From: Octopus vulgaris
Lineage: Eukaryota
Assembly (NCBI GenBank): GCA_951406725.2
Contig: OX597816.1
Coordinates: 75,702,001-75,766,000 of the forward strand
DNA length: 64,000 bases
Direction of reading: 5' to 3'
The position numbers were made by a program, and so were the translations under genes. Under the pieces are notes generated by a model. That model was not told the DNA's origin. It searched no databases and worked only from the letters and a program-made list of their open reading frames with translations. Below, piece after piece: positions 4,291 through 5,031 of this stretch. The first letter of the stretch is position 1. The number at the start of each line of letters is the position of its first letter.

Positions 4291-4418
4291 ACACATACAC
4301 ACACACATACACACACACACACACACACACACACACACACACACACACACACACACACACACACACACACACACACACACACACACACACACACACACAC
4401 ACACACATATATATATAT
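4291..4418. repeat. (CA)n/(TA)n microsatellite
   Basis: Read directly. Confidence 0.95.
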
Positions 4419-5031
4419 TAATAAATCTTAGGGTAGCAAAAAAATTTAGAAAAATTCTTTGCTACCCGTGGTCTAGCGAGAAGAGAAAATTAGTCAATAG
4501 ACTATATATTATTCATATAAAAACACAGTGTACATTTAAACACATAAGAGATGGCCATAACAGGCCATCTGACTCACTAGAAGGAGTAGTTAAACTACAA
4601 ACCACTAATAGACCACTGGTAGCAAAGAATTTTTCTAAATTTTTTTTGCTACCCTAATATTTATTAATTAATGATAAAAGGTTTTTTTTGGCTAATTTTG
4701 AAAGAAACTCGGCACTTGTATTTACTGCCGAAAAAGTTTTTTGAAAAGTTATATCATGAAAAGTTATATCATGAACACGAGGCATGTTCTTTATCGCCTC
4801 GTATTTATATGTTAGCCTTGGCTTCCTGCTGAAGAGAGCATCGCCAACTGTAAATGATTTTATTTACAAAAGATTGCTTGAAACTATGCGTAGTCCAGGA
4901 AAAATAGGATAAATGTTTTTATTTTTCATTCCCTTTCAGAATTACAACTATTAGTGGTTTGTAGTTTAACTACTCCTTCTAGCGAGTCAGATGGCTTGTT
5001 ATGGTCATCCTTTATGTATTTAAATGTACAC
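4418..5031. mobile_element. Fold-back, hammerhead-containing non-coding element between microsatellites (PLE pLTR-derived or retrozyme-like)
   Basis: Two inverted-repeat pairs (4418-4475 vs 4609-4668, and 4527-4610 vs 4949-5031), a hammerhead at 4823-4901, and (TA)n on both sides. Confidence 0.75.
4823..4901 (+). ncRNA. Canonical type I hammerhead ribozyme
   Basis: ttcctg-CTGAAGA-gagca...tgctt-GAA-ACTA-tgcg-TAGT-C-caggaa: 6-bp stem I, extended stem II (gagca/tgctt, tgtaaat/atttaca), 4-bp stem III, GUC triplet at 4893-4895. Confidence 0.85.

Follow-up and report, generated by a model that had tools for sequence, protein, structure and literature searches.

What kind of RNA template produces a hammerhead-bearing insertion whose modules stand in a circularly permuted order? 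The question is raised by an insertion of 616 bases at positions 4417-5032 of the 64,000-nt stretch of DNA analysed here (the window), where it lies inside a TA microsatellite. An earlier note, made from the sequence alone, had proposed that a hammerhead-processed circular monomer or a head-to-tail multimer was reverse transcribed there, with a template switch producing the inversion; its alternative was a stack of truncated pLTR insertions. Published work on Penelope-like elements (PLEs) and retrozymes is cited below by accession.

The insertion consists of an inverted arm of 195 nt and a direct arm of 424 nt, placed head-to-head (Table 1), the ribozyme strand being taken as the sense strand. 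On the plus strand, the direct arm (4609-5032) reads A'-X-hammerhead-linker-B, while the inverted arm, read on the minus strand from 4611 to 4417, gives B'-spacer-A. Self-BLAST with 4400-5040 as the query recovered A (4417-4475) and A' (4609-4668) as inverted copies identical at 57 of 60 columns (E 1e-20), and B' (4527-4611) and B (4948-5032) as inverted copies identical at 79 of 85 (E 2e-31). This confirmed the module order described in the earlier note for both strands, with boundaries shifted by 1 nt. The repeats are interleaved in the order A, B', A', B and not nested, and the terminal base of A' corresponds to the one at which A borders the TA tract. Divergence is equal in the two pairs (3/60 for A/A' and 6/85 for B/B'; Fisher p 0.74, a comparison of low power), which fits one event or two events close in time.

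At the join of the arms, 3 nt of microhomology (4609-4611) are common to both and the match extends no further on either side, as expected for the joining of two cDNA ends. The left end of the insertion adjoins (CA)49 then (TA)5, and the right end adjoins (TA)31; (TA)n tracts of this kind account for 1812 of the 64,000 bases of the window. The TA repeat is absent between A' and X, and 31 TA units lie between the focal element and the next insertion. Joined end to end, the modules close into a loop of 475 nt with a G+C of 0.31, in agreement with the roughly 470 nt that had been anticipated. The loop is nonetheless a construction, and B-spacer-A-X is found on one strand nowhere in the window. 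Each arm (424 and 195 nt) is shorter than the 475-nt unit, no arm ends at the cleavage site, and the direct arm runs through this site (after 4895), which is intact.

Table 1. Features of the insertion and of its flanks, in window coordinates.
Feature	Position	Strand	Remarks
Left flank	4310-4417		(CA)49 then (TA)5; target microsatellite
Module A	4417-4475	-	Outer (3') end of the inverted arm; 13-bp hairpin at 4431-4467; putative reverse-transcription start 2, 247 nt past the cut
Spacer S	4476-4526	-	51 nt, single copy; S + A form the 110-nt extension (tail) past the end of B
Module B'	4527-4611	-	5'-truncated start of the inverted arm; 79/85 nt identical to B
Inversion junction	4609-4611		3 nt present in both arms
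Module A'	4609-4668	+	5' end of the direct arm; 57/60 columns identical to A
Module X	4669-4822	+	Single copy of 154 nt with a structured fold (z -2.6) and, near 4743-4773, a tandem duplication of 15 nt
Type I hammerhead motif	4823-4901	+	Predicted cut after 4895
Linker	4902-4947	+	46 nt, single copy
Module B	4948-5032	+	3' end of the direct arm; putative reverse-transcription start 1, 137 nt past the cut
Right flank	5033-5094		(TA)31

Three in-frame stop codons stand at the very start of X (4669-4677), right at the A'|X border. Such a mixed triple occurs at 69 of 127,982 positions; the observation is post hoc, and the stops may mark the end of a parent's ORF. The linker contains a pyrimidine tract ending in CAG (4915-4938), 37 nt past the ribozyme, which looks like a splice acceptor; PLE leaders may contain introns (PMC4209133, PMC8557442).

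The hammerhead motif at 4823-4901 scored 16 in a strict structural scan of both strands of the whole window, in which the sole other match scored 9; one of 30 shuffles gave any match, with a score of 9. A relaxed scan of the whole window returned three motifs. Besides the focal motif, these are two mirror-image motifs, predicted to be cut after 5132 and after 5221, which belong to the neighbouring insertion at 5095-5329; the best of 12 shuffles reached 11 as against 16 for the focal motif. Its helices comprise 6 bp (I), 5 bp plus a long extension (II) and 4-5 bp (III), the core is intact and the triplet is GUC. The base of helix II is formed by a G-U pair at 10.1-11.1, where a G10.1-C11.1 pair is expected (PMC4209133); a CpG transition after insertion may explain the difference. 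Counted from the predicted cut after 4895, the distance is 137 nt to the right end and 247 nt to the end of A. The loop of helix III is self-complementary, and the helix III strand pairs with its own second copy at 12 of 12 positions (-15.1 kcal/mol). Comparison of constrained with free folding places the ribozyme fold 0.8 kcal/mol above the minimum, with an internal loop in helix I in the constrained fold; the free fold of 4815-4905 differs from the ribozyme fold and is unremarkable (z -1.3). The Rfam hammerhead gave no match at the gathering threshold and was not among the 37 matches up to E 10. Judged from its letters, the predicted type I hammerhead motif is well formed despite the Rfam miss.

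Elsewhere in the window, 20 of the 23 nt at 56864-56886 are identical to sequence in the 3' half of the focal ribozyme (E 0.12); the 5' core is absent in register. A likeness of 12 nt between the ribozyme core region (4829-4855) and the ORF start of octopus Naiad consensus sequences was treated as chance, being short, post hoc and unmatched by eye over the rest. By eye, this core-like stretch is all that the element has in common with the three octopus Naiad consensus sequences in the supplement of PMC8557442, two of which were compared in part.

The 13-bp hairpin of module A (4431-4467) reached a z of -5.6, with 0 of 200 shuffles equally stable. The fold of the loop gave z -5.9 in the sense direction (0 of 60 shuffles equally stable) and z -5.1 in the antisense direction, and strand polarity is absent. 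The direct arm (z -5.0) is more structured than all of 82 background segments (lowest z -4.2), a set from which simple-repeat-rich segments and those starting at 4300-5400 were excluded. A 7-bp hairpin across A'|X had been considered as a sign of a native junction and was dropped, as 31 of 328 and 439 of 5000 random joins (~9%) equalled it.

Searches for coding sequence within 4417-5032 found no ORF for a PLE reverse transcriptase or a GIY-YIG domain, and the focal element fails as an autonomous PLE, the ORF being absent. GIY-YIG was likewise absent from the 62 of 134 window frames of at least 90 aa that were scanned, the remainder being mostly simple-repeat frames by eye. Pfam applied to eight frames of the element returned only a sub-threshold zinc-finger match (E 0.017), which was dropped. 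The minus frame that crosses the junction yielded no candidates at near lengths, and none of 34 candidates scored at longer lengths; alignment of the B frame gave 0 of 9 candidates, and the plus frame of X had no match among 1.84 billion proteins and no usable Atlas match. None of five long ORFs of the window used as a control is present in the protein collection, and the translated-frame blanks therefore carry little weight.

Neither BLAST nor nhmmer recovered other copies of the focal modules within the window, beyond one chance match (E 4.9). A tandem array with a period of ~475 was absent from 1-12000, and the element holds a single ribozyme. A scan of prokaryotic genomes with the ribozyme pattern gave no match, as expected for animal DNA, and the 16-nt ribozyme motif does not occur in the supplement of PMC8557442. 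A link between the focal element and a named PLE family was not found in a comparison limited to the sequences of that supplement. The literature covered contains no octopus retrozyme and no report of the focal element's family; the supplements and repeat libraries likeliest to list one lie outside this coverage.

Two further hammerhead-bearing inverted footprints lie within 5 kb of the focal insertion, without permutation. The nearer one (5095-5329) occupies the same TA tract and is a near-perfect palindrome of 164 nt with a single-copy, one-sided extension of ~71 nt. Its arms are 95% identical over 87 nt, and each carries a compact type I hammerhead-like motif with a tetraloop-capped helix II, a long and bulged helix I and a U-to-C change at core position 4. 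Self-BLAST detected no sequence similarity between this insertion and the focal element. In the third inverted footprint (8941-9556), arms of 238 nt, 87% identical, both stop at one point beside (CA)n and (TA)n, and each contains a hammerhead, the two being differently decayed (cores at 9422 on the plus strand and 9078 on the minus strand); this footprint is older. With one-sided extensions of ~71 nt and 0 nt in these neighbours, the 110-nt extension of the focal insertion is locally not out of line. In this neighbourhood, insertions at microsatellites with inverted arms that bear ribozymes are the norm.

The published build of PLEs is similar, an inverted 5'-truncated copy standing beside an upstream pLTR with a tail of 30-40 bp at one end, and an insertion bias towards (TA)n is described for the clades Neptune and Naiad (PMC8557442). 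Pairs of ribozymes on opposite strands, 100-700 bp apart, were already noted in 2014 (PMC4209133). Because of this published build and of the local norm, the inversion is no evidence for a circle. It calls for no special template, since it is the ordinary arrangement of PLEs (PMC8557442) and occurs twice nearby where no module is permuted.

The window as a whole is AT-rich DNA of animal type that resembles octopus DNA and abounds in microsatellites; it also contains pieces of LINEs, a fragment of a transposase and a family of short dispersed repeats. A LINE interrupted by frameshifts lies at 29190-32335 (minus strand) and has domains of an AP-type endonuclease and of a reverse transcriptase; 36518-37402 is its inverted partial copy of 920 nt (80%), and we take this LINE to be RTE-like. 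Fragments with a zinc-binding motif (zf-RVT, E 2e-5) from the 3' end of another non-LTR retrotransposon family (17438-18935, 27183-27821 and 50355-51457) stand beside trinucleotide microsatellites. Terminal inverted repeats of 36 nt flank a DDE transposase fragment (61236-61550) in an element at 61156-62427 that is presumably Tc1/mariner-like. A MITE-like element of 433 nt (19928-20360) is bounded by terminal inverted repeats of 31 nt without a mismatch and encloses a short telomere-like repeat. An imperfect palindrome of 118 nt (28941-29058) adjoins (TA)n. A direct repeat of ~180 nt (43061-43240 and 43653-43831; 83% identical, 592 nt apart) contains ribozyme-core-like words and hairpins, and no full hammerhead was scored in it by the scan; this pair is possibly another short terminally redundant element.

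The focal footprint was very probably produced by PLE machinery of some kind. One PLE protein, studied in purified form, acts on both strands of the target, which it cuts and extends at AT-rich sites. Its reverse transcription begins at two positions within the RNA, both downstream of the hammerhead; it uses mainly uncleaved RNA and inserts ribozyme mutants normally, and this PLE endonuclease cuts its own pLTR near the boundary between ORF stop and pLTR (PMC11167929). By analogy, this mechanism may be mapped onto the focal locus. A donor locus would carry A-X-HHR-linker-B-spacer in tandem and be transcribed through, and a PLE protein acting in trans would nick both strands of (TA)n. Priming within the RNA would start one cDNA where B ends and another where A ends, 110 nt further along. 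Both would halt early, after 424 and 195 nt, and join via 3 nt of complementarity, which would create the inversion. Module A would stand on both arms because the first cDNA ran past the unit boundary and back into A. Ribozyme cleavage would be required by none of these steps. The smallest single template would be B-spacer-A-X-HHR-linker-B, ~560 nt, for which a head-to-tail transcript would suffice and a circle would serve equally.

On these grounds, we tentatively read the insertion as one PLE-driven copy of an ORF-less, retrozyme-like unit of ~475 nt, made from an uncleaved head-to-tail transcript; once the variant with a circular template is counted in, the reading of such a unit becomes slightly probable. 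It is only the repeat of A ahead of X that favours a short unit. That the A-X junction is native is supported by the absence of TA between A' and X, the sufficiency of one event, the equal divergence of the two pairs and the structure of the direct arm. Against a 475-nt unit stand the single locus, the absent array and the single hammerhead, as well as an extension of 110 nt that exceeds the published tail of 30-40 bp and the coincident end points of A' and A, for which stacking would account equally well. The earlier suggestion that this is the footprint of a hammerhead-processed circle or multimer is partly supported. A short unit with terminal redundancy explains the insertion most economically, and the inversion junction shows the 3-nt microhomology that the joining of two cDNA ends would leave. 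Specificity of the footprint to a circle or to processing was not borne out. Circularity and processing are not established because neither arm exceeds one unit, no end falls at the cut, the element has one ribozyme and there is no array; a single copy does not establish a circular RNA template or hammerhead processing.

The main competitor, itself a doubtful reading though one that keeps a sizeable share of the probability, makes the loop illusory: the modules would be ends of a longer autonomous PLE, brought together by stacking or by a template jump. In that case, B'-spacer-A together with A' would be an ordinary inverted footprint, with both arms ending at one 3' site, and would abut a separate, 5'-truncated X-HHR-B, either through a second insertion at the edge of X-HHR-B or through a jump of the reverse transcriptase within one event. 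A and A' end at the same base, like the arms of 8941-9556, and the same TA tract also took the unrelated hammerhead-bearing insertion at 5095-5329, which shows that the site was hit repeatedly. The PLE endonuclease cuts AT-rich DNA within its own pLTR (PMC11167929), A'|X is AT-rich, and complex tandem and inverted insertions are common (PMC8557442). However, no TA or coding remnant is present between A' and X or to the left of 4417, two events of the same family at one base, or a jump, would be required, and the X frames tested match no PLE protein (weak negatives, given the 0/5 control). It is distinctly unlikely that the template was a hammerhead-processed and ligated circular monomer of 475 nt, with reverse transcription crossing the ligated cleavage site. 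Such a circle would suit a unit that closes without a gap, a helix III of 4 bp and a ribozyme fold lying 0.8 kcal/mol from the minimum. Similar-sized animal retrozymes accumulate as circles, also in mussel (PMC7229834), and a proposal from 2014 gives PLEs circular templates (PMC4209133). Yet with arms of at most one unit and no end at the cut, a circle and an uncleaved multimer are indistinguishable here; the single PLE tested relied chiefly on uncleaved RNA as its substrate, and mutating the ribozyme left insertion normal (PMC11167929), and eight of nine predicted Xenopus dimers failed to cleave in vitro (bioRxiv 10.64898/2026.07.22.740005).

Two readings at the DNA level complete the comparison. 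An ordinary insertion might have been rearranged afterwards, if the DNA broke close to the A hairpin or to the TA tract and repair by fold-back copying placed a second copy of the terminal 60 nt at the arm junction. Such a rearrangement is very unlikely: the strong A hairpin beside the TA tract and the microhomology at the junction would accommodate it, but A/A' is not detectably younger than B/B' (a test of low power), both outer ends have clean TA junctions, and the neighbours show the two-arm build without an extra step. A DNA transposon is the least credible origin and highly improbable; it would be a MITE or a Helitron end whose terminal repeats are A/A' and which lies within or next to a repeat carrying the ribozyme. 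A and A' are indeed 60-nt inverted repeats at a TA site, and the A hairpin is followed by CTAG on the plus strand, as in a Helitron end. The repeats interleave, though, A' lacks CTAG, the would-be MITE interior is a copy of B, and no other A-bounded element exists in the window; the Helitron/MITE reading was rejected for the interleaved repeats and the end motif missing in A'. A bolder version of the preferred ORF-less unit, unlikely in our judgement, would see in A'|X the birth of a retrozyme. The reverse-transcription start of a PLE (the end of A) would have become joined to a sister copy at its boundary between ORF stop and pLTR, giving a self-cleaving, circularising, ORF-less pLTR-plus-tail unit of 475 nt spread by the parent's protein, and the insertion would be its offspring. 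The three stops at the start of X, and the cutting by a PLE endonuclease of its own pLTR near such a boundary, are in keeping with this fusion. If true, this would offer a concrete one-step route from an autonomous PLE to a circle-forming retrozyme in a probable cephalopod.

Should the A'|X junction recur, the element would be an undescribed ORF-less derivative of PLEs. Its two-armed footprint would then be direct genomic evidence of PLE proteins mobilising retrozyme-like units, with the same two starts and priming on both strands as seen in vitro for one PLE. Until now, the case for linking PLEs and retrozymes has been built on their co-occurrence and on the similarity of pLTRs (bioRxiv 10.64898/2026.07.22.740005; PMC7229834). 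Tandem or circular templates for both are already in print (PMC4209133, PMC7229834), which makes the surprise a modest one. If the junction is unique, the insertion is an ordinary PLE remnant.

Known systems resemble the element to different degrees. In L1 twin priming, two cDNAs of one RNA polarity are joined head-to-head by a microhomology of a few bases, with a small overlap at the breakpoint. Compared with such L1 inversions, the focal insertion has neither a poly(A) tail nor L1 features, and shows an overlap of 60 nt and a microsatellite target. Truncated insertions of EN+ PLEs with an inverted pLTR copy (Figure 2 legend of PMC8557442; PMC4209133; PAc in PMC11167929) share with it the terminal hammerhead, a 5'-truncated copy standing inverted at the 5' end, an extension confined to one end, a (TA)n target and ends downstream of the ribozyme. 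In contrast to them, the focal element lacks an ORF for reverse transcriptase or GIY-YIG, its extension measures 110 nt and not 30-40, and the last 60 nt of this extension recur ahead of X, where coding sequence would be expected.

Tandem units derived from pLTRs and devoid of an ORF are documented (PMC7229834; bioRxiv 10.64898/2026.07.22.740005; MRC1 in PMC8557442). MRC1 of Chlamydomonas, a non-autonomous PLE derivative, is ORF-less like the focal element; it forms pLTRs and head-to-tail insertions, and its 3' end resembles that of an autonomous family (PMC8557442). No autonomous partner was identified for the focal element, and Chlamys-type elements, unlike it, mostly lack canonical hammerheads. 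Dimer-type ribozymes show the same pairing of the helix III strand with a second copy as the focal motif (PMC4209133).

Animal non-LTR retrozymes (PMC7229834; bioRxiv 10.64898/2026.07.22.740005) are likewise non-coding units of a few hundred bases, 475 nt here against 51-972 bp reported, with a type I hammerhead, a G+C below 50% (31% in the focal unit) and a string of hairpins. They are described as derived from pLTRs, with solo monomers known in retrozyme families (bioRxiv 10.64898/2026.07.22.740005), are related to pLTRs and are thought to be moved by PLE proteins; their circular RNAs are reported from coral, mussel and axolotl (PMC7229834). Retrozymes have tandem ribozyme-bearing units and circular RNA in vivo, whereas the focal element has one ribozyme, no array and an inverted arm, and its long helix II is closer to PLE-type ribozymes. 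At this locus, it fails as an active non-LTR retrozyme, for want of a tandem of two ribozyme-bearing units, and it may still belong to a retrozyme family. In its workings, the focal element resembles a PLE insertion and, if the preferred reading is right, a retrozyme monomer as well.
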